A stretch of 64,000 bases of DNA from Candidatus Nomurabacteria bacterium (GCA_023898465.1 CP060223.1:288001-352000); one strand, 5' to 3'. Positions 5,382-53,565 are shown, counted from the first letter of the stretch. Numbers and translations are program-made. The notes: generated by a model not told the origin, from the sequence alone.

Positions 5382-5456
5382 GGCCCTATCGTCTAGTGGC
5401 TAGGACGCATGGTTCTCATCCATGTAACAGGGGTTCGATTCCCCTTAGGGCTACCA
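5382..5456 (+). tRNA. tRNA-Glu (anticodon CTC), CCA encoded
   Basis: Hand-folded cloverleaf. Acceptor GGCCCTA/TAGGGCT, D arm GTCT-AGTGGCTA-GGAC, anticodon stem CATGG/CCATG with loop TTCTCAT, T arm AGGGG-TTCGATT-CCCCT, discriminator A, then CCA. 75 nt. Confidence 0.93.
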
Positions 5457-5471
5457 GCCCGCTTAGCGGGC
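5457..5471 (+). terminator. stem-loop directly after tRNA-Glu (GCCCGC-TTA-GCGGGC)
   Basis: Perfect 6-bp GC stem starting at the base after CCA. The trailing U-tract is poor (TCTGCTG). Confidence 0.4.
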
Positions 5472-5539
5472 TCTGCTGATAAGGATAGAAGAAAGTAAAA
5501 GTGGAATGTTTAGCATGTTGTTTTATAAGTTAAGGAATC

Positions 5540-5840
5540 GAACGGGCGAGGACGTCTGCCAGCGGCAGGCGACCGCAAGCCCCGGCCTGAAGTCCCGATA
5601 GGGACGGAATGGTCGATTCCCCTTAGGGCTACCACGGGCCATTGCGCCGTGCGGACTGCGTCCGACCAGGTCGGACTCCGCCCTTACGGCGCATGTCCCT
5701 TTCCCCATTGCAAACAGTCCCTCTCGGCAGCCTCGAGGTCCTTGGTTTGCAACGGGGGCCCCGATAAGAGTGCGGGCCCAAGTGCTCGGCATTACAAAGC
5801 GTCCCAGAAAAAATGCCAGACACAAGTCTTCGGCATTTAA
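5540..5840. other. GC-rich, heavily base-paired non-coding segment (possible ncRNA or relic of foreign DNA)
   Basis: Nested helix 5644-5692: GCGCCGT/ACGGCGC enclosing GCGGA/TCCGC enclosing GTCCGAC/GTCGGAC. Long-range TTGCAAAC/GTTTGCAA pairs 5708-5715 with 5745-5752. Hairpin at 5811-5838. Only overlapping multi-frame ORFs lie here. Confidence 0.3.
5613..5634 (+). repeat. 22-nt exact direct repeat of the tRNA-Glu 3' end (copy of 5435-5456)
   Basis: TCGATTCCCCTTAGGGCTACCA occurs at 5435-5456 (T loop to CCA of the tRNA) and again at 5613-5634. Confidence 0.9.
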
Positions 5841-5927
5841 TGAGAAGAAGACGTAGGTCAACTTCAGAGTGAGTCACCACAAACATCGTCGCTGCGCTAG
5901 AGGCAGCATAATTCAGGAGGAAAAAAT

Positions 5928-23267: not shown

Positions 23268-24362
23268 GACGTCGCGTACTCGGAATGACTTCCAGGCCAG
23301 TAAGAAGGACAGGAGAATCCAGCCACCCAGGATGCTGAACTCATAACCGAAGTCACTTATTGGGCTGCCATTTACTGCTACGCCACGTAAGACCTTGAGC
23401 AGTGAAGTGAGTGGCAAGAAGTCAACAATCCGTTCCACAGCTGGTGGTAACATGTCAGGCGAGAAAAAGACGCCAGACAAGAACATCATCGGCGTGGTGA
23501 AAGCATTAGACATTGCCTCAGCAGTATTCACTGTTTTTGCTTGTCCAGCCACAAAGAATCCGATGTTGAGGAAGACGATTGTGCCAATAAGTGTAACCAG
23601 AGTAAGCAGTAACAAGCTGCCGTGAATTTCGACACCAAAGACTAAGCGGGCCACGCTGAGAATTACCGTGATCTGCATTAAAGACAGCACGAGATAAGAT
23701 CCAACCTCAGCCACTAAGAAATTTCGTACCTTAATCGGCGTAGCTAATAAACGCTTGAGGATTTTTCGTTCACGATAGCGCGTAATGCCCACAGCAATAC
23801 CAATGATGGCCGAGAACATGATAGCCATGCCCAGGATGCCCGGGGTAAGGAAATCGAGGTATTTCACATCTTGACCCTGCACACCCTCGGTTGCCACGGT
23901 GAAAATAGGTTGGGCGCCCGCGATTTGCAGATTTACCTTATTTAAAAAGTCATTAAGCACGCTGACGATAATACCGCTCTGCTGATTTGTTTCATCCAGT
24001 ATAACGGTGAAGTTGAGCGGCTCAGTTACTTCATTTTGGGGGACTTGGCCATAGGCGTCTGGGATAACAATAATCCCATCGAGCTCACCATCTTTCATGC
24101 TTTGCACCGCCTCATCCTTATTCGTAATATCGGATTCAGTGAAAATTTCTAAGGAGAACATTTGCTCGCGCAGCATTTGAGAGGATTCAGTTTGTGCCTC
24201 ATCAATCACTGCAATATCAAAGGAGGCTGGAGCATCAAAATTAAATAAGCCAAAAATAACTAGGAAGAGCAGGGGAAAGACCAGCGACCAAAAGAGAGAC
24301 TGCCGGTCGCGAAACAGCATTTTGAGGTTGGAAAGGAAAAGCCTCCAGGTAGGGTTATTCAC
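23265..24362 (-). CDS. ABC-2 type transporter permease
   Basis: 365 aa. N-terminal TM, a large extracytoplasmic loop, then a cluster of 5 TM helices. Overlaps the upstream ATPase gene by 8 nt. Confidence 0.85.
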   Translation of the reverse strand: MNNPTWRLFLSNLKMLFRDRQSLFWSLVFPLLFLVIFGLFNFDAPASFDIAVIDEAQTESSQMLREQMFSLEIFTESDITNKDEAVQSMKDGELDGIIVIPDAYGQVPQNEVTEPLNFTVILDETNQQSGIIVSVLNDFLNKVNLQIAGAQPIFTVATEGVQGQDVKYLDFLTPGILGMAIMFSAIIGIAVGITRYRERKILKRLLATPIKVRNFLVAEVGSYLVLSLMQITVILSVARLVFGVEIHGSLLLLTLVTLIGTIVFLNIGFFVAGQAKTVNTAEAMSNAFTTPMMFLSGVFFSPDMLPPAVERIVDFLPLTSLLKVLRGVAVNGSPISDFGYEFSILGGWILLSFLLAWKSFRVRDV

Positions 24363-25296
24363 GGAGTTTGCTCCCGGTTAAGTGCAAGAAGACATCCTCC
24401 AAGGTTGCTCGAGTGACTTCAATATCTTCCAAGTGCATTTGATGCTGCTCAGCCCAACGGATGAGTGGAGGGAGTACGGCTGAGGCGTGAGTTATTTGTA
24501 ATCGGTATGAGTTTGGCTCACCGTTCATTTCAGCTTTGATGACACCTTCCATGTTAGTGAATTCACTCACTTCTACAGCCTGCGGTGTTTTAAAAGCAAG
24601 ATGGGCAGACGCGTCCAGCTGATCAATCAGTGCCTTAGGCGTATCCAAAGCTACAATCTTACCGTGATCTATGACGCCAATACGATCACAAAGCTCCTCA
24701 GCTTCTTCCATATAGTGGGTGGTGAGGACGACGGTCTTGCCTTGTTCCTTAATCTTGCGAATGAATTGCCACATATGCCGACGCGCCTGTGGGTCCAGAC
24801 CAGTGGTCGGCTCATCCAAGAATACAATCTCCGGATCATTCACTAGGCTAACGGCAATTGAGAAACGTTGCTGCTGACCGCCGGATAATTCCTTTACCAG
24901 TGCTTTTCGCTTTTCGTAGAGGTCAACAATCTTCAGTAGCTCCTCAGCATTTTTTTGCTTTGGGTAAAAAGTGCCAAACAGTTTCAAAATTTCTTCCAGT
25001 GACAGGTAATCGTAAAAAGATGATGACTGTAGTTGGATACCAATGCGTTGCTTTACTTTTTCTACCTCGTGATGAGAATCAAAGCCAAGCACCTTGGCTG
25101 AGCCTCGGGTGGGTACTTGCAGGCCTTCAATTATTTCCAGTGTGGTGGTTTTCCCGGCGCCATTAGGACCCAGGAAGCCAAAAATTTCACCTTGGGCCAC
25201 TTGGAAACTAATGCCGTCCACTGCAGTAAGTTTGCCTGAGCCTTTACCCGGGAGAGGAAATTCTTTGACTAGTTCTTGTACTTCGATGACAGACAT
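24355..25296 (-). CDS. ABC transporter ATP-binding protein
   Basis: Walker A GPNGAGKTT, signature LSGGQQQR, Walker B VFLDEPTTGLD. Start taken at MSVIEVQELVKEF; the ORF track opens 8 codons earlier. Confidence 0.9.
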   Translation of the reverse strand: MSVIEVQELVKEFPLPGKGSGKLTAVDGISFQVAQGEIFGFLGPNGAGKTTTLEIIEGLQVPTRGSAKVLGFDSHHEVEKVKQRIGIQLQSSSFYDYLSLEEILKLFGTFYPKQKNAEELLKIVDLYEKRKALVKELSGGQQQRFSIAVSLVNDPEIVFLDEPTTGLDPQARRHMWQFIRKIKEQGKTVVLTTHYMEEAEELCDRIGVIDHGKIVALDTPKALIDQLDASAHLAFKTPQAVEVSEFTNMEGVIKAEMNGEPNSYRLQITHASAVLPPLIRWAEQHQMHLEDIEVTRATLEDVFLHLTGSKLRE

Positions 25297-25379
25297 AAAG
25301 CAAAGGGGAGTGTAGTACATTCAAATGTGGGTGTAAAGGGAGCATTTGACATATTTTCATATTGTTTTATCCTTAGTCA

Positions 25380-25815
25380 GGATCTTTCGAAGAAATCAAT
25401 AGAGATGGCCTAACCCGCTCTTGGGGTTGAAGTCAACGTTGTTGCATTTCTCGGGTCCCTTTGGGACTCATGCAACCGATCGACAAACTGTTCTTCGGAA
25501 CAGGGGTCTGAGCCAAAACCAGTGTCGTGTACGTTGTACGACGTTGCGACTCTGGGGTTGTGGGGCATGCAGTAGAGTTCCGTACAGAAACTCATCGAGT
25601 AAGAAAATCGAGGGTTGAGAAGCCCCACGATCTCGACTAGCATGTACCCTGGACTTCGGTCCGCTGGGTGTTCGTCCCTTCGTGGTATATCGGCCTTCAT
25701 GGTCGAGCGCACATCCATGGCTAAACAATAGAAAGATCCTTTTGACCAGGACCTAGTCCTGTGCTCTCGAGGGGTGACACCACGTGTGCTCACCCCTCTC
25801 TTTCTTGCTTGTTTT
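25380..25815 (+). ncRNA. candidate ~430-nt structured RNA (function unknown)
   Basis: Candidate promoter TTGACA-16-TATCCT at 25346-25373. Helices at 25441-25476, 25488-25503 (UUCG loop), 25560-25566 paired with 25622-25628, and 25651-25662 (UUCG loop). Terminal 9-bp hairpin at 25769-25798 followed by a T-rich tract. Confidence 0.3.
25769..25815 (+). terminator. hairpin plus T-rich tract (GAGGGGTGA / TCACCCCTC)
   Basis: 9-bp perfect stem, 12-nt loop, then TCTTTCTTGCTTGTTTTC. Confidence 0.45.
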
Positions 25816-25871
25816 CTGCTTCTCGCCTAGACTGACCATAGCTCTTTTGTTTCGTCGATCGAGGAGGGACC

Positions 25872-26051
25872 ATGAGGTTGTTTCTTCTTTGTGTCACCAT
25901 CGTCGCCCTGCCAAGCATGTTTGGCTATGCGGTGCTATGGGCGAGTGCTCGAGGAGCAAAGGCCATCGAGGATGAGCTCCCTGACGACAGGGAAGGGCGG
26001 CGGGCAGCTCATTTGGCCAGATCGCTTGATCCACCTTTTCCTGACTACTAA
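25872..26051 (+). CDS. small orphan membrane/secreted protein (59 aa), below the ORF-track cutoff
   Basis: Translated by hand: MRLFLLCVTIVALPSMFGYAVLWASARGAKAIEDELPDDREGRRAAHLARSLDPPFPDY. SD GAGGAGGGA at 25861-25869. A terminator follows. Confidence 0.45.
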   Translation: MRLFLLCVTIVALPSMFGYAVLWASARGAKAIEDELPDDREGRRAAHLARSLDPPFPDY

Positions 26052-26068
26052 GTCAGGTGCATTCCATT

Positions 26069-26097
26069 GAGACGACTTTGCCCGGAGTCGTCTTTTC
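26069..26097 (+). terminator. rho-independent terminator
   Basis: GACGACT-ttgcccgg-AGTCGTC followed by TTTTC. Confidence 0.65.
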
Positions 26098-26147
26098 ATA
26101 GCGTCTTTTCGAGAAAATTGCTATAGTGGAAGCTGAATTACGGGGGT

Positions 26148-32005: not shown

Positions 32006-32070
32006 GGTGAATGTGGAAAAGTATTTTTTCTTTCAACGCATACGACAAAGGTGGCATGAAAGGAGTTCAC

Positions 32071-32481
32071 ATGGACGTGAACAAAGTAACTTTGATCGGG
32101 AATTTAGTCCGCGATCCCGAGGCGAGAAATTTACCGAGCGGACAGGCGATTAGCACTTTTTCACTCGCCACAAACTATAGCTGGCGAGACATTAAAACAA
32201 AGAGTCGCAAGGAGTCAACTGAATTTCATGACATTGTTGCCTGGGGAAAATTGGGCGAAATCATCCAGCAGTACGTGAAAAAGGGCAGCAAAGTATATAT
32301 CGAAGGTCGCCTCCACCGTCGTTCTTGGGAAGATAAGGCAAAACAAAAGCATTATCGAACCGAGGTAGTTGCAGAAAATTTGGTCATGCTAGGTCATCGT
32401 AGTGCAAAGACAAAAGAAGTTGAACCAACCGAGTTACCAAAAGATGAGGTCAGTGTAGAAGAAATCCCCGTTACCGCTTAA
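32071..32481 (+). CDS. ssb: single-stranded DNA-binding protein
   Basis: SD AAAGGAG. NKVTLIGNLVRDPE...FHDIVAWGKLGE...VYIEGRL OB fold. The C-terminal tail ends EEIPVTA rather than the usual DDDIPF. Confidence 0.9.
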   Translation: MDVNKVTLIGNLVRDPEARNLPSGQAISTFSLATNYSWRDIKTKSRKESTEFHDIVAWGKLGEIIQQYVKKGSKVYIEGRLHRRSWEDKAKQKHYRTEVVAENLVMLGHRSAKTKEVEPTELPKDEVSVEEIPVTA

Positions 32482-32769
32482 GCTCTTTACACTCGAGAAG
32501 TTTGAACAAGCGTTCAGGCTTCTCGTCCGCTCAGCATGTGCGATCACTTGATGGTTCCTTTAAATTTTGATCGCCACCAAAATTTGTCTGCTATCAAGCG
32601 GCTGCTATGTTGAGTGGACGAGAGGTTAATTCTCTTCTTATGCAAATCATTTACTCCATCATTTCTATACTTATTCTCTGTGTTTTGGGAATCATTTTCC
32701 GAGTGCTTACTTGGACAGAGGAAGAAAACTAATTGTCTTTGTTGTAAGACTTTAGGTGTCTGTAGAAAA

Positions 32770-39399: not shown

Positions 39400-40545
39400 A
39401 TGTACACTCTTTCCGTGAATGTAGGCAGCTCAAGTATGAAGTTTGCCGTTTTTGCTCGTGATGAAAAGGTGCTACTGCGGGGTGTGCTCGATGGTATGAA
39501 GCGCGTTAATGTTGTTGTGCATTTGCAGTACGGTAACAAGAAGCGAACCTATGATGTGCGCGGGCCAATTCGTTTGGCTAAGGCGTTTCAATTACTTCGC
39601 AGCGCATTAACCGAGGCGGGGATTGATCAGGCAGAAGTATCAAGCGTGGGTCATCGAGTTGTACACGGGGGAAAGTTTGGTCATGCGGTGAAAATTACCC
39701 CGGCAGTATTACGCGAGTTAAAAAAGTACATTCCACTGGCGCCTCTGCATCAAGGTCAAGATATTGAGGCTATACGTACTGCCCAAAAAGTTTTTCCTGA
39801 GGCGCAGCATATAGCGGTTTTTGACACCTCATTCTTTACGCACTTACCTGAAAAAGCAAAATACTACGCGTTACCGCGAGCGATCATGAAGAAATACCAG
39901 CTGCGCCGGGCAGGTTTCCACGGCCCTTCGCACCAGCACGCTGCCCAGTACGCCGCCCAGAAACTCGGCCGGCCTTTGCGTAAACTTAATCTCATCAGCA
40001 TACACCTAGGTTCAGGCTGTAGCATGACGGCAATTCAGCACGGTAAGCCAGTTGATACCTCTATGGGTTTCACTCCATTGGAAGGCTTAGTCATGTCTAC
40101 TCGTTCTGGTGATATTGATCCTGGCCTGATGCTCTTTCTTTTACGACAGGGATGGAACGTTTCCATGATTGATCGATTACTTCATACGCAATCCGGCTGG
40201 TACGGCCTAAGCGGATTTGTAGATTTTCGTGATGTACTTAAAGCATCTGGTTATCCCGTACCAAATTGGAAATTGCCGCATAAAGTAAATACACAACAAA
40301 AGGCCGAGTGTCGGGCGACAGTCGATACTGTGCTGTATCGACTGACCAAGTATCTTGGTGCGTACTGGGCAGTGCTTGGTGAAGTTGATGCAGTTATTTG
40401 TACCGGCGCAATGGGAGCGAAGAATGTCTGGTTTCGGAAGGCTCTGAAATCCTCCTCGCCTTTGTTTCATCATGCGAAGTGGTTAGCGGTGGAATCAGAC
40501 GAAGAGTTATTAATTGCTCGAGCAGTCCATACTACAGTGAAATAA
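39400..40545 (+). CDS. ackA: acetate kinase
   Basis: LSVNVGSSSMKFAVF, VGHRVVHGG, FDTSFF, GFHGPSH, HLGSGCS. Confidence 0.9.
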   Translation: MYTLSVNVGSSSMKFAVFARDEKVLLRGVLDGMKRVNVVVHLQYGNKKRTYDVRGPIRLAKAFQLLRSALTEAGIDQAEVSSVGHRVVHGGKFGHAVKITPAVLRELKKYIPLAPLHQGQDIEAIRTAQKVFPEAQHIAVFDTSFFTHLPEKAKYYALPRAIMKKYQLRRAGFHGPSHQHAAQYAAQKLGRPLRKLNLISIHLGSGCSMTAIQHGKPVDTSMGFTPLEGLVMSTRSGDIDPGLMLFLLRQGWNVSMIDRLLHTQSGWYGLSGFVDFRDVLKASGYPVPNWKLPHKVNTQQKAECRATVDTVLYRLTKYLGAYWAVLGEVDAVICTGAMGAKNVWFRKALKSSSPLFHHAKWLAVESDEELLIARAVHTTVK

Positions 40546-40547
40546 CT

Positions 40548-41045
40548 ATGTGGTTTACGCCTAGTGAATGGATTGAGCTACTCATCTTGTTTTTTGCTAC
40601 CTTACTTATCCCGACCTTTAATTTCGTCTCACCTTTCCGTCCAATCCTTCTCATTATCGCTTTTGCCACTCATATCCACTTTCTTGTTGTTGGTGTGGTG
40701 GCTTCGGTGGGGGCAACGCTCGGCACTTTGCCACTTTACTACGTTGGACGAAAAACGCAGGAAATGGAAAAGGTGCAAACATGGCTGCAGCATCACTCAA
40801 AATGGAAGCGCTTACTTGAGAGAGTAGAACACAGCACATTTCTTGTCCTTTTGCTTTTACTTTGGACACCCTTACCTGATCAACTCGTTGGACTCTATGG
40901 CGGATTTGAGCGCTATACTATGAAAAAGTTTCTCCTAGCAAATTTTATTGGGCGAGCCGTATGGTACATCCCTCTCGCTTTTGCTGCGACAATATTTGAT
41001 GATCCATTAAGTGGCTTATGGCATTGGCTAACCGGGTGGCTATAA
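40548..41045 (+). CDS. small polytopic membrane protein, DedA/VTT-like
   Basis: Internal ATG 2 nt after the ackA stop. 165 aa, 4-5 TM helices, LGTLPLYYVGRK motif. Confidence 0.5.
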   Translation: MWFTPSEWIELLILFFATLLIPTFNFVSPFRPILLIIAFATHIHFLVVGVVASVGATLGTLPLYYVGRKTQEMEKVQTWLQHHSKWKRLLERVEHSTFLVLLLLLWTPLPDQLVGLYGGFERYTMKKFLLANFIGRAVWYIPLAFAATIFDDPLSGLWHWLTGWL

Positions 41046-41046
41046 G

Positions 41047-41075
41047 TTGCGTGAAAGTAGAAAAATTCGTATACT
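41047..41075 (+). promoter_or_regulatory. sigma70-type promoter of korAB
   Basis: TTGCGT, 17-nt spacer, TATACT. Lies 11 nt before ATG 41087. Confidence 0.55.
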
Positions 41076-41086
41076 AGTGGAACGTC

Positions 41087-42832
41087 ATGGAGGAAATAAC
41101 ACTGAAAATTGGGGGTATCGCCGGGGCGGGAATTAAATCTACCGGCGAGATATTTGCAAAAATCTGCTTGCGCTCAGGCTGGCATGTCTTTGATTACACT
41201 GAATATCCCTCACTTATTCGCGGAGGACATAACACCTATCACGTGCGAGCAGCCACGGAGCCAATCTGGAGCACGGTGCAGTATATACACATCCTTATCG
41301 CACTAAATGAGGAGGCCGTACGACTTCATTTGGAGCACGTGATTGAGGGTGGAGTAGTGGTGTACGATCCTTCGGTCGTGGATGCTGAAAAACTTGGTCG
41401 AGGTCGTAGTGATGTGCGCTTTTGTGCAGTACCTTTTGCTGAATTGGCCATTTCCTCAGGCGGTATTGAAAAGATGGGAAATATGGTTTCCATTGGTGCG
41501 GTGGTTGGACTCTTACACGGCTCGCTGAAAATTACCAAGTCAGTTATTGCCGATATTTTTGCCACTAAGGGTGAGCAAATTGTTTCACAGAATGAAGTAG
41601 CGGCTGAGGCTGGCTATGAATATGTGCAAGAGCATTTTTCTGAACCTTTTGCATGGACTTTGCATGAGTTGGATGCGCCTGAACAGATGCTCGTAGCAGG
41701 AAACGAAGCATTAGGCTTTGGCGCTTTAGCCGGCGGCGTGCAATTTTATGCGGGATATCCCATGACACCATCCTCATCCATCCTGCATTTCATGGCCAAA
41801 TACGGGCCAAAGCAGGGCGTGGTAGTGAAGCACGCTAGCGATGAAATTGGTGCAGTAAATATGTGCATTGGCGCTGGATTTGCGGGAGCGCGAGCCATGA
41901 CCGCCAGTTCGGGTGGGGGTTTTTCTCTCATGGTGGAATCACTTGGTCTAGCTGGGATTACCGAAACGCCAATTGTTATTACCGAAGTGCAGCGTGGTGG
42001 TCCAGCCACCGGCCTACCAACCTGGACCGAGCAAGCCGACCTTCGCTTTGTTGCTCATGCCTCACAGGGTGAATTTCCTCGCGTGCTTTTGGCACCTGCT
42101 TCGGTCGAGGAATGCTTTACCCATGCGGCACTGGCACTTAATCTAGCAGAAATCGCACAAACCCCAGTGCTTATCTTGTCTGATAAATTATTGGCAGAGA
42201 GTCAGAAGAGTACAGAGCCTTTCACCTCCAAACACGTTGCTATTGATCGAGGTAAGCTCATGACCACTCGGGAGGCAAATAGACAAAAAGACTACCACCG
42301 TTATGAAATCACAGAGGATGGTATTTCACCTCGAGCTGTACCAGGCCTGCCCAATACACTTTTCCTAGCTAATAGCGATGAGCATGACACCTATGGCTAT
42401 AGTGAAGAGAACGCAGAGAATCGCACCGCAATGGTTGATAAGCGAGCTCGTAAGCTTGAGCAGATTAAGGATTTACTGCCAAAGCCGATAATAATCGGAC
42501 CAAAGCAAGCTGACTACACTTTTATTACCTGGGGATCCACTATGGGCCCGGTGCTTGATGCAATGCGTATCCTCGAGGCTGAGGGACATAGCGTGCAGAT
42601 GTATCGCTTGCCAGTGATACTTCCGTTCCCAAGCGAAGAGGTAACACAATTTCTAGAAACTACCACGCAAACTATTTTAGTAGAGAATAACAGCGAAGGT
42701 CAGCTTGGTGGTTTGATTCGCGAAAAAACTGGTTACGAATTAGATGTGCACATGTTGAAATATGATGGCCGGCCCTTTTTCCCAGAGGAAATTGTACAAA
42801 ACTTTTTAGCAATGATTGAAGAAGCGCATTAA
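41087..42832 (+). CDS. korA: 2-oxoacid:ferredoxin oxidoreductase, fused gamma-alpha subunit
   Basis: N-terminal gamma-like domain (GGIAGAGIKSTGEIFA...SLIRGGHN) followed by the alpha domain (GNEALGFGALAGGVQFYAGYPMTPSS). Confidence 0.85.
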   Translation: MEEITLKIGGIAGAGIKSTGEIFAKICLRSGWHVFDYTEYPSLIRGGHNTYHVRAATEPIWSTVQYIHILIALNEEAVRLHLEHVIEGGVVVYDPSVVDAEKLGRGRSDVRFCAVPFAELAISSGGIEKMGNMVSIGAVVGLLHGSLKITKSVIADIFATKGEQIVSQNEVAAEAGYEYVQEHFSEPFAWTLHELDAPEQMLVAGNEALGFGALAGGVQFYAGYPMTPSSSILHFMAKYGPKQGVVVKHASDEIGAVNMCIGAGFAGARAMTASSGGGFSLMVESLGLAGITETPIVITEVQRGGPATGLPTWTEQADLRFVAHASQGEFPRVLLAPASVEECFTHAALALNLAEIAQTPVLILSDKLLAESQKSTEPFTSKHVAIDRGKLMTTREANRQKDYHRYEITEDGISPRAVPGLPNTLFLANSDEHDTYGYSEENAENRTAMVDKRARKLEQIKDLLPKPIIIGPKQADYTFITWGSTMGPVLDAMRILEAEGHSVQMYRLPVILPFPSEEVTQFLETTTQTILVENNSEGQLGGLIREKTGYELDVHMLKYDGRPFFPEEIVQNFLAMIEEAH

Positions 42833-50010: not shown

Positions 50011-50490
50011 CTATTCACCGCTTGATCCGGCGCCGATCGAGGCTCCAAACACCGTCACTCCGTCGCGTTGTCCGATCATCAAGTCAACCGGTGGGAGTTG
50101 GATGAACTTCATCACATAAGGGTTCAGATACTGCAGTACCCGGAAGTGGGCAGCGTATCCGAGTATCGGGTCAAATCCGTCCGAAGGTTGGAAGCCAAGC
50201 GTTGCTGATACACCGAGGAAAGGAAGCGGTTGCACATGGACATGGCCGCCCAACATCCAGAGGATTTCCTTGTCCTCGACCTGCAGGCAGACTTGGGGTC
50301 CGACCGAGAGGTGGCTGAGAGGAAAAAGTCGATGGTACTGACCGTCGAGACGCAGTTCGTCTTCTTCATCGACTCTGGTGTCGCCACCAACGATGATTGC
50401 TCCGAACTTGGGATGAGTATCGTCGTCAGCCAGGCTTGTCCCAGCCATCAAGCCTAGCAGTAACAGTGAAAAAAGAACGCACACTTTCAT
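50011..50490 (-). CDS. orphan secreted protein (signal peptide), elevated GC
   Basis: SD GGAGGG 6 nt upstream of ATG 50490. MKVCVLFSLLLLGLMAGTSLADDD is signal-like. No family recognised. Confidence 0.6.
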   Translation of the reverse strand: MKVCVLFSLLLLGLMAGTSLADDDTHPKFGAIIVGGDTRVDEEDELRLDGQYHRLFPLSHLSVGPQVCLQVEDKEILWMLGGHVHVQPLPFLGVSATLGFQPSDGFDPILGYAAHFRVLQYLNPYVMKFIQLPPVDLMIGQRDGVTVFGASIGAGSSGE

Positions 50491-50578
50491 GGCACACCCT
50501 CCGTATGCATAGTGGAAACTGACGCTTACTATGGTACTCCAGGAGGGACTATCTCGCAAAAAGTGGAGAAATAGCAAC

Positions 50579-50607
50579 TTGACAAACAGGCGCTTTTTCG
50601 GTATGTT
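50579..50607 (+). promoter_or_regulatory. sigma70-type promoter of rnpB
   Basis: TTGACA, 17-nt spacer, TATGTT. The -10 element ends 5 nt before the first P1 base. Confidence 0.7.
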
Positions 50608-50612
50608 CGCAT

Positions 50613-51031
50613 GTGCTGACGTGCGCCGGATGACTGCTCCGCCTTAGGTGGAGAGGAAAGTCCGAACACCCCCCAAGCCCCCCATTTTTGAGAGGTTTGT
50701 GGAAGTAGGTCGTTCCGAAAGGGAACCGAGCAATTGGTTGTAAGCTTTCGGCCGAATAACCAATGGTTTAGGGAAAGTGTCACAGAGACAATACTGCCGA
50801 TGATCTCGCTTAGCGGGATACAGGTAATAGGTGAAAAGTAAGGGCCTAAGAATCCTTTCTCTTCATAGGTGACTATGAGGAGTGAAAAACCCGACCTGGT
50901 GCAAGATCGCATAGGTCTAGTCATTCGACTGGACGGGTAGATCGCATGATCCCGACGGCGACGTCGGGGCTAGAGAGATAGTCATCCCTCATTATGAGGA
51001 CAGAATTCGGCTTATAGGTGTGCGTCAGCAC
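50613..51031 (+). ncRNA. rnpB: RNase P RNA (bacterial type A)
   Basis: P1 pairs GTGCTGACG (50613-50621) with CGTCAGCAC (51023-51031). Conserved GAGGAAAGTCCGAAC, ACAGAGACAATACTGCC and ACAGAATTCGGCTTATAGG blocks are present. Confidence 0.92.
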
Positions 51032-51043
51032 CTAAGAGAATTT

Positions 51044-52432
51044 ATGAAAAAGCTTGAATTGGTAATTAGCGCAATTCTTGTACCGATCGACTGGCTTATG
51101 ATCGTTGCTGCTGGTTTGGCTTCGTATTACCTACGTTTCACCAGTTTTGCTGAATTGCGACCGGTTATTTATGAAATGCCATTTGATGAGTACGTTAATA
51201 TCGTGCTCGGAGTGGCAGTGTTATGGCTGCTTATTTTTGCCATGAGCGGTCTCTATAGCTTAGGTGGTCGTGTCCGATGGGTTGATGAATTCGCAAAGGT
51301 CTTTTTTGCCTGTTCAACCGGAGTTATGCTCCTGATTATTTTGATTTTCTTCCAGCGTGAACTTTTTTCTTCACGTTTTATTATTGTATCCGGCTGGGTG
51401 CTTAGCATACTTTTTGTGGCCCTAGCCCGCATTGTGGTTCGCGTTGTACAACATTCCTTATATGTGAAAGGTGTGGGTGTGCATCGTTTAGCTCTGGTAG
51501 GTAATAGTGGATCTCAGCATGAATTACAGAATCACATTAGCAATCATCCTGGGTTAGGCATGCGTGTGGTGCATACCTATGGGCAAGCAGATGAAAGCGT
51601 TCTTCCTCAGCTGGAAACGCTTATGCAACAGCGTGCCATTGACGAGCTAGTGGTCACTGATGCACGGATGCCAAAAGAAGCTATGTTGAAGTTGATCGAA
51701 TTGGCAAATGATTATCATGTAAATTTTAAATATGCGGCAGATCGTTTTGAGACCATGGCGTCAAGTATTAGTACGCAAACGCTGGGTGGTATACCGATCA
51801 TTGAATTGTGCCGCACACCGCTCGATGGTTGGGGTAAGATATTGAAACGCAGCTTCGATATTTTTGGCGCGGTGATAGGTCTCATCATTCTTATTCCAGT
51901 CGGCGCAATAGTCGCCTTAGCTATCTCCATAGACAATCCAGGTCCGATCTTTGTTCGACTTGAGCGGATAGGTAAAGCAAATAAACGATTCCATCTTTAT
52001 AAGTTTCGTTCCATGGTGCCAAATGCGCATGCTATGAAGCCACAACTCATGCAAATGAATGAGCGAAATGATGGACCCCTCTTTAAAATGAAAAACGATC
52101 CACGCATTACGCGAGTTGGTCGCTTCCTCCGGGTTTCCAGTATTGATGAGCTACCGCAGCTATGGAACGTGTTAAAAGGTGAAATGAGTTTAGTGGGCCC
52201 TCGTCCACATGAGCCAGAAGAGGTGGCAAAGTATTCGCGCAACGATCGCAGCCTGCTGACTGTGAAGCCGGGGATTACCGGCCTGGCACAGATTTCCGGT
52301 CGTTCTACACTTAGCTTTGAGGAAGAGGTGCGCTTGGATCTCTATTACATTGAGCATTGGTCGCTTCGTCTAGATCTGCATATACTCGTAAAAACACCCG
52401 CAGTCGTGTTGTCGACTCGTTCCGCCGCATGA
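51044..52432 (+). CDS. polyprenyl-phosphate hexose-1-phosphate transferase (WbaP/bacterial sugar transferase family)
   Basis: N-terminal TM helices. C-terminal IGKANKRFHLYKFRSM, DELPQLWNVLKGEMSLVGPRP, PGITGLAQ. Start moved to 51044 to clear rnpB. Confidence 0.88.
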   Translation: MKKLELVISAILVPIDWLMIVAAGLASYYLRFTSFAELRPVIYEMPFDEYVNIVLGVAVLWLLIFAMSGLYSLGGRVRWVDEFAKVFFACSTGVMLLIILIFFQRELFSSRFIIVSGWVLSILFVALARIVVRVVQHSLYVKGVGVHRLALVGNSGSQHELQNHISNHPGLGMRVVHTYGQADESVLPQLETLMQQRAIDELVVTDARMPKEAMLKLIELANDYHVNFKYAADRFETMASSISTQTLGGIPIIELCRTPLDGWGKILKRSFDIFGAVIGLIILIPVGAIVALAISIDNPGPIFVRLERIGKANKRFHLYKFRSMVPNAHAMKPQLMQMNERNDGPLFKMKNDPRITRVGRFLRVSSIDELPQLWNVLKGEMSLVGPRPHEPEEVAKYSRNDRSLLTVKPGITGLAQISGRSTLSFEEEVRLDLYYIEHWSLRLDLHILVKTPAVVLSTRSAA

Positions 52433-53565
52433 AAAAACCACGCATCGCTTTAGTTCATGAGCACTTAGCCCAGGACGGGGGAGCAGAAAAAGTGCTGAAA
52501 GTGTTTCAGGAAATGTTTCCTGAGGCGCCTACCTATACCTTGGTATTTGATAAACGCAAAACGAATCGGGCCTTTTTAGGAAAGGATATTCGCACGTCTT
52601 TTATTCAAAAGTTGCCTTTCGGGGTACGTCATTATCAAATGTATTTGCCACTTATGCCATCGGCGGTTGAGCAATTCAACTTAGGTGACTACGATATTGT
52701 GCTCTCTTCCAGTTCTGCTTTATCAAAGGGCGTGCTCACGCTTCCAGAGACTCTTCACATTTGTTACTGCCATTCACCAACGCGCTATCTGTGGAGTGAT
52801 ACGCATCGTTACGTGCAGGAGCTACCCTACAATCGTCTGATCAAAAAGTTTGTTCCGATGCTGCTTAATCGCATTCGCATGTGGGACCGTTTAGCGGCTG
52901 AGCGAGTTGATACTTTTATTGCAAATTCATACGCTATCCGACGTCGCATTCAGAAATATTATCAGCGCGACAGTCAGGTTATTTATCCGCCGGTTGATGC
53001 ACAGTCATTTAGTATTAGCCCGACTATTGGCAATTACTATTTGATCGGTGGTCGCTTAGTTGCGTACAAGCGCTATGACCTGGCGGTGATGGCCTTTAAT
53101 CGCCTTGGTATTCCTTTGAAGATATTTGGCGATGGGCCGGAACTTAAAAACCTCAAAAGCATTGCTAAGTCTAATATTGAGTTTGTCGGCAAAGTTTCGC
53201 CGGATGAATTAAAAAAGCTGTATCGTGAGTGCGTGGCTTTTCTTCACCCACAAGAAGAAGACTTTGGCATCACTGCAATTGAGGCAATGGCGTCTGGTCG
53301 TCCTGTTATTGCGTATGCGGCTGGTGGTGCGCTGGAAACAGTAATACCCGGAAAAACAGGCGAGCTTTTTGATGATCAAAATTGGGAAACCTTAGCAGAC
53401 ACAATAGTCCGTTTCCATCCCGAACAGTATTCACCAGAAGAAATTCGTGCGCACGCTTTGCAGTTTGATACCGAAGTGTTTAAGAAGCGGGTGCACGACT
53501 TTGTCGATCAAAAATACGCTGAGCATTCAACTATTCGTAATTCATCACATCCCTATGGAGCTTGA
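52429..53565 (+). CDS. glycosyltransferase family 4
   Basis: ATGA overlap with the previous gene. IALVHEHLAQDGGAEKV and EDFGITAIEAMASGRPVIA. Confidence 0.85.
   Translation: MKKPRIALVHEHLAQDGGAEKVLKVFQEMFPEAPTYTLVFDKRKTNRAFLGKDIRTSFIQKLPFGVRHYQMYLPLMPSAVEQFNLGDYDIVLSSSSALSKGVLTLPETLHICYCHSPTRYLWSDTHRYVQELPYNRLIKKFVPMLLNRIRMWDRLAAERVDTFIANSYAIRRRIQKYYQRDSQVIYPPVDAQSFSISPTIGNYYLIGGRLVAYKRYDLAVMAFNRLGIPLKIFGDGPELKNLKSIAKSNIEFVGKVSPDELKKLYRECVAFLHPQEEDFGITAIEAMASGRPVIAYAAGGALETVIPGKTGELFDDQNWETLADTIVRFHPEQYSPEEIRAHALQFDTEVFKKRVHDFVDQKYAEHSTIRNSSHPYGA

Follow-up and report, generated by a model that had tools for sequence, protein, structure and literature searches.

A candidate structured non-coding RNA gene between the ABC transporter and tkt operons of a Candidatus Nomurabacteria genome

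The ABC transporter–tkt intergenic region and its signals

The window, i.e., the whole 64-kb stretch of Candidatus Nomurabacteria DNA analyzed here, carries on its plus strand a candidate RNA of approximately 420–435 bases, placed between two operons with the ABC transporter on one side and tkt on the other. The GC content reaches 53–59% over positions 25425–26100 in comparison with 42–48% in the flanks, and the source gene caller called no gene within the RNA region. The start of the neighboring ABC ATPase gene (24355–25320) is ambiguous: the mechanical ORF begins at 25320 (321 aa) and the source call at 25296 (313 aa). No record matches the 321-aa form exactly, and the search with the 313-aa product gave no 100% self-match among the matches listed, the best of them being 75% identical. 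Elsewhere in the window, stretches of 1014 nt (52432–53447) and 541 nt (40545–41087) are devoid of ORFs of at least 90 aa and were not unusually structured in the MFE scan.

A sigma-70-type promoter, TTGACA-16-TATCCT, occupies positions 25346–25373 of the plus strand, with the transcript start predicted at approximately 25380. This motif, already listed in the initial annotation of the locus, was also returned by our consensus scan. Only seven promoter-like sites with at least 10 of 12 matches were found in 128 kb (both strands), and a perfect TTGACA hexamer occurs in three of them: in front of the candidate RNA, in the promoter of the RNase P RNA, and upstream of a gene. As a predicted element, the promoter of the candidate RNA is equal in quality to the RNase P RNA promoter of the same genome. 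The RNase P RNA locus (50579–51030) has its own TTGACA-17-TATGTT promoter; the class A RNA itself (50618–51030) scored 164.8 bits and contains a 68-nt insertion where the model has 11 positions. Two minus-strand mechanical ORFs (50011–50577 and 50529–50924) overlap the RNase P promoter or the RNA gene.

At the opposite end of the candidate RNA lies the terminator-like hairpin T1, GAGGGGUGA(CAC)...(GUG)C UCACCCCUC, followed by a U-rich tract, UCUUUCUUGCUUGUUUU (25769–25815, plus strand; −20.3 kcal/mol). The arms GAGGGGUGA (25769–25777) and UCACCCCUC (25790–25798) form 9 bp, and the U-tract behind them is interrupted by C and G. The hairpin with its T-rich tract had been described before and is indeed present; the consensus scan overlooked it for one reason only, its nominal loop length of 12 nt. 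When the nascent transcript up to 25789 (25380–25789) was folded, the 5′ arm of T1 paired weakly and locally while the P1-closed body described below persisted, and no alternative pairing rivaled the T1 hairpin. Since no antiterminator was predicted, termination would be the default outcome. The earlier proposal of either an independent ncRNA or a terminator/antiterminator leader thus retains its structured RNA, whereas its antiterminator version finds no competitor to T1.

A second terminator-like hairpin, T2 (GAGACGACUUU-GCCC-GGAGUCGUCUU, then UUCAU; 26069–26099 of the plus strand, hairpin 26069–26094), is located 3′ of a 59-aa ORF and is weaker than T1 (−13.6 versus −20.3 kcal/mol). An extended −10 motif (TGCTATAGT) precedes tkt, which, judging from these motifs, appears to have a terminator–promoter boundary of its own. 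Both elements intervene between the candidate RNA and tkt, which argues against a tkt leader. A riboswitch for the TPP-cofactor enzyme was rejected on the same grounds and because the element is absent at the five tkt homologue loci examined.

The 59-aa ORF between the two hairpins (locus tag H6760_01515; 25861–26051 including the ribosome-binding site, plus strand) starts with ATG at 25872 behind a strong Shine–Dalgarno sequence, GAGGAGG (25861–25867). It encodes a hydrophobic N-terminus and a charged tail. The only match to this protein among 5.8 billion proteins was the protein itself, and neither a Pfam match nor a known toxin family was found for it. The ORF region folds unremarkably (z = −1.65). 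The best promoter that could be read manually between T1 and the ORF, TTGCTT-17-TAGACT, matches the consensus at 7 of 12 positions and is absent from the consensus-scan list.

Two segments of the candidate RNA are complementary to the initiation region of this ORF: 25477–25487 with 25851–25861 (10/11) and 25697–25704 with 25868–25875 (8/8, over the AUG). The duplex with the initiation region was the strongest of the 20 tested and better than that of 96% of shuffled bodies (p ~0.04, a marginal value), and the complementarity includes a CGAUCG palindrome. Complementarity in type I toxin–antitoxin systems typically extends over at least 18 nt. Set against the features of such systems, the locus offers the hydrophobic N-terminus of the ORF and the 10/11 and 8/8 complementarity at p ~0.04, with no match to a toxin family.

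Predicted architecture and strength of the fold

RNAfold gave −168.9 kcal/mol for the plus strand of 25380–25815, which corresponds to z = −4.77 relative to dinucleotide shuffles; the minus strand of the same segment reached z = −2.92. The body alone (25380–25745, plus strand) scored z = −4.50; the RNase P RNA of the window (50618–51030), used as a positive control, reached z = −4.69. In the GC-adjusted MFE scan of the whole 64-kb window (360-nt windows, both strands), the candidate RNA ranked fifth out of 1416, with the RNase P RNA and a tRNA-Glu-associated region also among the top ranks. Other long spacers of the window (>300 nt) displayed no comparable fold. The G-U pairs, which cannot form on the opposite strand, make up 15 of the 145 MFE pairs, a share that fits the plus-strand preference. 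C(UUCG)G loops are hyperstable, and CUUCGG on a stem of at least 5 bp was found four times in 128 kb (both strands), with two of the four occurrences in the candidate RNA. The earlier suggestion of a plus-strand structured RNA is in line with the promoter, the terminator, the fold z-score and the strand asymmetry.

A spacer in a relative and two other structured spots of the window deserve a comment. In the related locus L029, the spacer upstream of the ABC operon has z = −4.73 on the strand that points away from the ABC gene and is not homologous to the candidate RNA; a z-score of this size is thus not peculiar to functional large RNAs. This region of L029 (2608–3000, minus strand), upstream of proC, has a TTGACA-17-TACGAT promoter, a hairpin of ~125 nt and a clean terminator, ACCCGCCAACGGCGGGU followed by U7, and the L029 ABC ATPase is 66% identical to that of the window. 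Some 155 nt past the tRNA-Glu(CUC) gene (5382–5456), 24 nt of the 3′ end of this gene are repeated (GGTCGATTCCCCTTAGGGCTACCA, ~5612–5637, one T missing), which looks like an integration scar. The surrounding stretch, within 5382–5900, has a GC content of 58% and a strong fold on the plus (z = −3.1) as well as the minus strand (z = −4.3); no Rfam family matches it, and a mechanical minus-strand ORF of 112 aa (5523–5861) overlaps it. The most negative GC-adjusted folding energy of the whole window (plus strand, −3.75 sd) belongs to the spacer 32482–32613 behind an ssb-like gene (32011–32481), which contains a long hairpin (CTCGAGAAG...CTTCTCG... and GATCACTTGATGG...).

The folding ensemble of the candidate RNA is well defined, with approximately 25 helices at p > 0.84 in the partition function; the helix architecture given below is a prediction from one sequence. 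The closing helix P1 pairs GGAUCUUUC (25380–25388) with GAAAGAUCC (25731–25739) over 9 bp with p > 0.99. Its strands are part of a perfect 10-nt inverted repeat, and it connects the predicted 5′ terminus with a position ~350 nt downstream, closing six branches. This helix was absent from the initial annotation.

The first branch, Domain A (25391–25451), is a long interrupted hairpin in the MFE structure, built of the strands AGAAAU, CAAUAG, UGGC and UAACCC on the 5′ side and GGGUUG, GUCA, UUGUUG and AUUUCU on the 3′ side (helix p 0.94–0.99). It is followed by Hairpin B, GGGUCCC-UUU-GGGACUC (25453–25469, p = 0.99). Domain C (25472–25561, p = 0.95–1.00) is closed by GCAACC/GGUUGU and holds a C(UUCG)G hairpin (25488–25503) together with a long hairpin (25519–25555). 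Domain D (25562–25649, p = 0.84–0.97) is closed by GGGGCAUGC/GCAUGUACCC and comprises a hairpin at 25575–25593 and another at 25596–25635 with a GAGA loop of the GNRA type. The second C(UUCG)G loop caps Hairpin E, GGAC-UUCG-GUCC (25651–25662, p = 0.99), and Domain F, GGGUGU.CGU ... UCGGCC-UUCAU-GGUCGA ... GCG.ACAUCC (25666–25716, p = 0.93–0.97), completes the body. Between the body and T1 stands Hairpin G, CAGGAC-CUA-GUCCUG (25747–25761, p = 0.99). All these elements are on the plus strand. The addition of 90 nt of downstream sequence altered the global fold and left the local hairpins unchanged.

Of the five helices proposed before, GUCCC-UUU-GGGAC (25455–25467) is present as part of Hairpin B at p = 0.99, and both UUCG-capped hairpins, CUGUUC-UUCG-GAACAG (25488–25503) and GGAC-UUCG-GUCC (25651–25662), appear in the ensemble at high probability. 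The two remaining proposals were correct in position and complementarity but not in the predicted fold: GUUGCAU/AUGCAAC (25441–25447 with 25470–25476) and the long-range GUGGGGC/GCCCCAC (25560–25566 with 25622–25628) each have an ensemble probability of ~0, since more stable pairings take up their strands.

Coding potential, known RNA classes and relatives

Three overlapping ORFs had been listed over the same DNA, in addition to the 59-aa ORF at 25872; all of them exist, the overlapping three being 127 and 86 aa long on the minus strand and 65 aa on the plus strand, and the view that the overlapping ones are unlikely to be genes gains weight from the protein searches. The 127-aa minus-strand ORF has no real homologue: its three matches among 1.84 billion representatives were all translated tandem repeats. 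Stop-free stretches in all six frames gave no Pfam match above noise. The candidate RNA displays the attributes of a stand-alone ncRNA gene: a promoter and an intrinsic terminator of its own, both predicted on the strand of the RNA, a position outside coding sequence and no coding potential.

The Rfam/Infernal scan that had been recommended was run and gave no family match. No hit at the candidate RNA was obtained for the whole window at gathering score, and none on the RNA itself when 1001-nt and 451-nt segments were searched against 4227 families at E ≤ 10; two Rfam matches on the minus strand of T1 were judged to be due to chance. The earlier exclusion of tmRNA was upheld by ARAGORN, which detected neither tRNA nor tmRNA at the candidate RNA, and by Rfam. 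The sequence contains no GUUCRANYC T-loop or CCA end, and a tag frame ending in an ...(A)LAA-type motif is absent from all three plus-strand frames. The tmRNA candidate was therefore rejected for want of a tRNA-like domain, a tag frame and an Rfam tmRNA-family match.

Two other assignments were dismissed. A riboswitch or attenuator found no Rfam aptamer, no antiterminator and no conserved tie to a downstream gene family. For a MITE or insertion-sequence remnant, the 10-bp inverted repeat is present, but neither a duplication at its flanks nor another copy within the 64 kb was found.

Group I introns of Patescibacteria that are undetected by RF00028 and ARAGORN have been reported (Nakagawa et al. 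2026, PMC13011429). At the candidate RNA, the group I core P3–P9 (RF00028) gave no match at E ≤ 10 in the 1001-nt and 451-nt searches. The flanks contain no tRNA halves, tmRNA, rRNA or coding exon of a split host gene; they consist of the promoter and the U-rich tract. Manual threading onto a group I intron was rejected, as ~90 nt fall where J8/7 should be ~6 and the P4–P6 domain is too small. The genome of the window had no match in the searched part of the supplements to PMC13011429.

In the public data searched, copies of the locus were limited to four other contigs carrying the 59-aa ORF, all identical across the RNA; the sole variant among them is one SNP at 25342, outside the RNA. DNA contigs of the organism derive from the runs SRR12358675, SRR12358676 and SRR14234116 and from the assembly ERZ27309206. 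The nhmmer search of the fetched CPR loci (~0.2 Mb of CPR DNA) revealed no diverged homologue of the RNA, and blastn found nothing in phage genomes. When the 127-aa frame served as a six-seed probe, the JGI metagenomes and IMG/VR yielded chance seed matches only, none of them confirmed. Two matches to a DNA pattern of junction plus hairpin in the JGI metagenomes were both dismissed as chance. A MAG labelled Candidatus Nomurabacteria (Patescibacteria) encodes a transketolase with 100% identity to the tkt product of the window. The nearest tkt homologues are 57–59% identical, and in the five tkt loci examined, all with short upstream spacers, no upstream element was present.

Relatives of the ABC ATPase (66–75% identical) were more informative as to the surroundings of the locus. 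The ABC operon faces infA-rpsM-rpsK-rpsD-rpoA-rplQ in L021, L024, L026 and L031, proC in L029 and other genes in L025 and L033, with a large NHL protein also among the neighbors. The infA cluster is absent from the 64-kb window. In L021 and L026, TTGACA-17-TACAAT/TAGAAT motifs are placed 47–62 nt from the ABC start codon, the corresponding distance being 49 nt for TTGACA-16-TATCCT in the window; a TTGACA promoter at a similar distance occurs in L021, L024 and L026 (69–75% ABC identity). Judging by these motifs, the position of the promoter is conserved and the genes driven are not. As the equivalent promoter would drive infA and ribosomal-protein genes in most relatives, the RNA sits at a synteny breakpoint.

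Some of these loci contain features of separate interest. In L021 (8038–8835), as well as in L022 and L024, a heliorhodopsin gene (PF18761) follows the end of the ABC operon at a distance of ~3.1 kb, and the heliorhodopsin-bearing relatives are the closest ones, with an ABC ATPase 75% identical to that of the window. In L033, a 54-aa ORF (2613–2777) encoding one hydrophobic helix and an acidic tail is divergent beside the ABC operon; it resembles the 59-aa ORF of the window in position and shape, without sequence similarity.

Interpretation and comparison with known systems

Altogether, these data are read by us, at a probability of roughly 0.45, as pointing to a lineage-restricted, stand-alone gene for a structured ncRNA of ~420–435 nt on the plus strand, predicted to end at 25798–25815 with some read-through. 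Transcription would start near 25380 from the strong sigma-70-type promoter. The first nine bases would pair with 25731–25739 and close a compact six-branch body, with C(UUCG)G loops at the tips of two branches and a GNRA loop at that of a third. Hairpin G and then T1 (25769–25815), predicted to be a strong intrinsic terminator, would form the 3′ end; as the U-tract of T1 is interrupted, some polymerase probably continues into the orphan 59-aa membrane-protein ORF. That the RNA is produced, ends at T1 and has a function is what we infer from this arrangement. As to its role, our guess is that the RNA is stable, acts as a regulator or binds protein, and is linked to the small ORF next to it; two RNA segments are complementary to the ribosome-binding region of that ORF. 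We consider it improbable that the RNA is the first example, and the only one sampled to date, of a novel class of large ncRNAs with a complex fold in a poorly sampled Patescibacteria lineage, the ~350-nt body serving as a ribozyme or a ribonucleoprotein scaffold and not as a simple regulator.

The locus may also be read as a single transcript from 25380 to 26095, in which the structured RNA is a long 5′ leader, with T1 attenuating and/or the body masking the ribosome-binding site of the ORF, a design known from small membrane toxins with long folded mRNAs. The lack of a good promoter between T1 and the ORF speaks for such a leader, as do the two segments complementary to the initiation region, with their duplex the best of 20, and the N-terminal hydrophobic helix and charged tail of the ORF product, typical of small membrane peptides. 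We nevertheless consider it rather unlikely, because T1 forms by default with no antiterminator predicted and the complementarity is marginal (p ~0.04) with the CGAUCG palindrome included. A leader of 490 nt would moreover be extreme in a genome whose spacers are mostly <100 nt, the ORF region is not unusually structured (z = −1.65), and the ORF is an orphan outside the known toxin families.

A less favored option, unlikely in our judgment, is a by-product of rearrangement or insertion, i.e., foreign or scrambled GC-richer DNA (25405–26100) placed behind the ancestral infA-operon promoter, perhaps transcribed but without a selected function and with an incidental stability of the fold. In its favor are the synteny breakpoint, at which the relatives carry infA and ribosomal-protein genes, proC or others, the raised GC content (53–59% over 25425–26100 against 42–48% in the flanks), the orphan status of both the RNA and the ORF, and the similar z-score (−4.73) of the non-homologous L029 spacer. 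However, a closing helix at the promoter-proximal 5′ end, tetraloops, a defined ensemble and a strong terminator are unlike a random insert. A streamlined 1-Mb genome rarely retains ~500 nt of junk, and the other spacers >300 nt lack such a fold. We regard it as very unlikely that a known class, mainly the group I introns or else an aberrant tmRNA, is represented here in a form too divergent for the models. The escape of Patescibacteria introns from RF00028 and ARAGORN (PMC13011429) leaves room for it, and a P7-like helix, GACUAG/CUAGUC (25635–25640 with 25753–25758), can be sketched manually, as can a P3-like one; yet the 4227 Rfam families at E ≤ 10 and ARAGORN were negative, the flanks hold no split tRNA, tmRNA, rRNA or coding exon, the threading fails at J8/7 and P4–P6, and a tmRNA would lack its T-arm, CCA end and tag frame. 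The least probable alternative, in our view extremely so, is a minus-strand protein gene corresponding to the 127-aa ORF (25410–25793): the frame is open over 127 codons, but it begins with GTG without a Shine–Dalgarno sequence, its R/S/T/P-rich product is not protein-like, its matches are tandem repeats only with no Pfam hit above noise, and the source gene caller did not call it.

Returning to the stand-alone ncRNA gene, we regard the locus as a credible candidate for an orphan structured RNA, ordinary in kind (a bacterial ncRNA gene) and, as far as the folding model goes, of a size and stability unusual in a 1-Mb genome. The genomes of Patescibacteria are tiny and leave little DNA to spare, and to our knowledge almost nothing is known of their ncRNAs past rRNA, tRNA, RNase P and introns. 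An RNA of ~430 nt folded as tightly as RNase P RNA in a 1.08-Mb genome would, if real, be a candidate for a new RNA function. The locus would also provide a useful test case for RNA genes arising at rearrangement breakpoints behind an existing strong promoter.

Several known systems share parts of this design. Attenuating riboswitches and leaders likewise present a P1-closed segment and then an intrinsic terminator upstream of an ORF; the candidate RNA is 2–3 times longer, has no antiterminator or known aptamer, and precedes an orphan ORF and not a transporter or enzyme gene. The mRNAs of hok-like type I toxins resemble the locus in their small hydrophobic ORF, long-range 5′–3′ pairing and complementarity to the initiation region. 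In contrast to them, P1 encloses a non-coding body that the terminator separates from the ORF, there is no evident antisense RNA gene and no toxin similarity, and the complementarity is short. Large ncRNAs of the OLE, raiA and ROOL type were found as long GC-rich intergenic regions in Breaker-laboratory style searches. The candidate RNA, too, is a long, GC-richer and strongly folding spacer flanked by a promoter and a terminator, but those classes rest on many covarying homologues, of which it has none, and it matches none of their Rfam models. With the divergent group I introns of Patescibacteria (PMC13011429) it has in common the phylum, a similar size and the failure of standard tools to detect it; unlike them, it has no host gene or exons and no recognizable P3–P9 core and lies between a promoter and a terminator. 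From the class A RNase P RNA (RF00010) the candidate differs in being without conserved core sequences, an Rfam score or conservation detected outside one species. Nevertheless, the two RNAs resemble each other in having their own TTGACA-type promoter, a length of ~400 nt, an enriched GC content and the same z-score, as well as a terminal helix closing a multi-branch body with tetraloop-capped hairpins.
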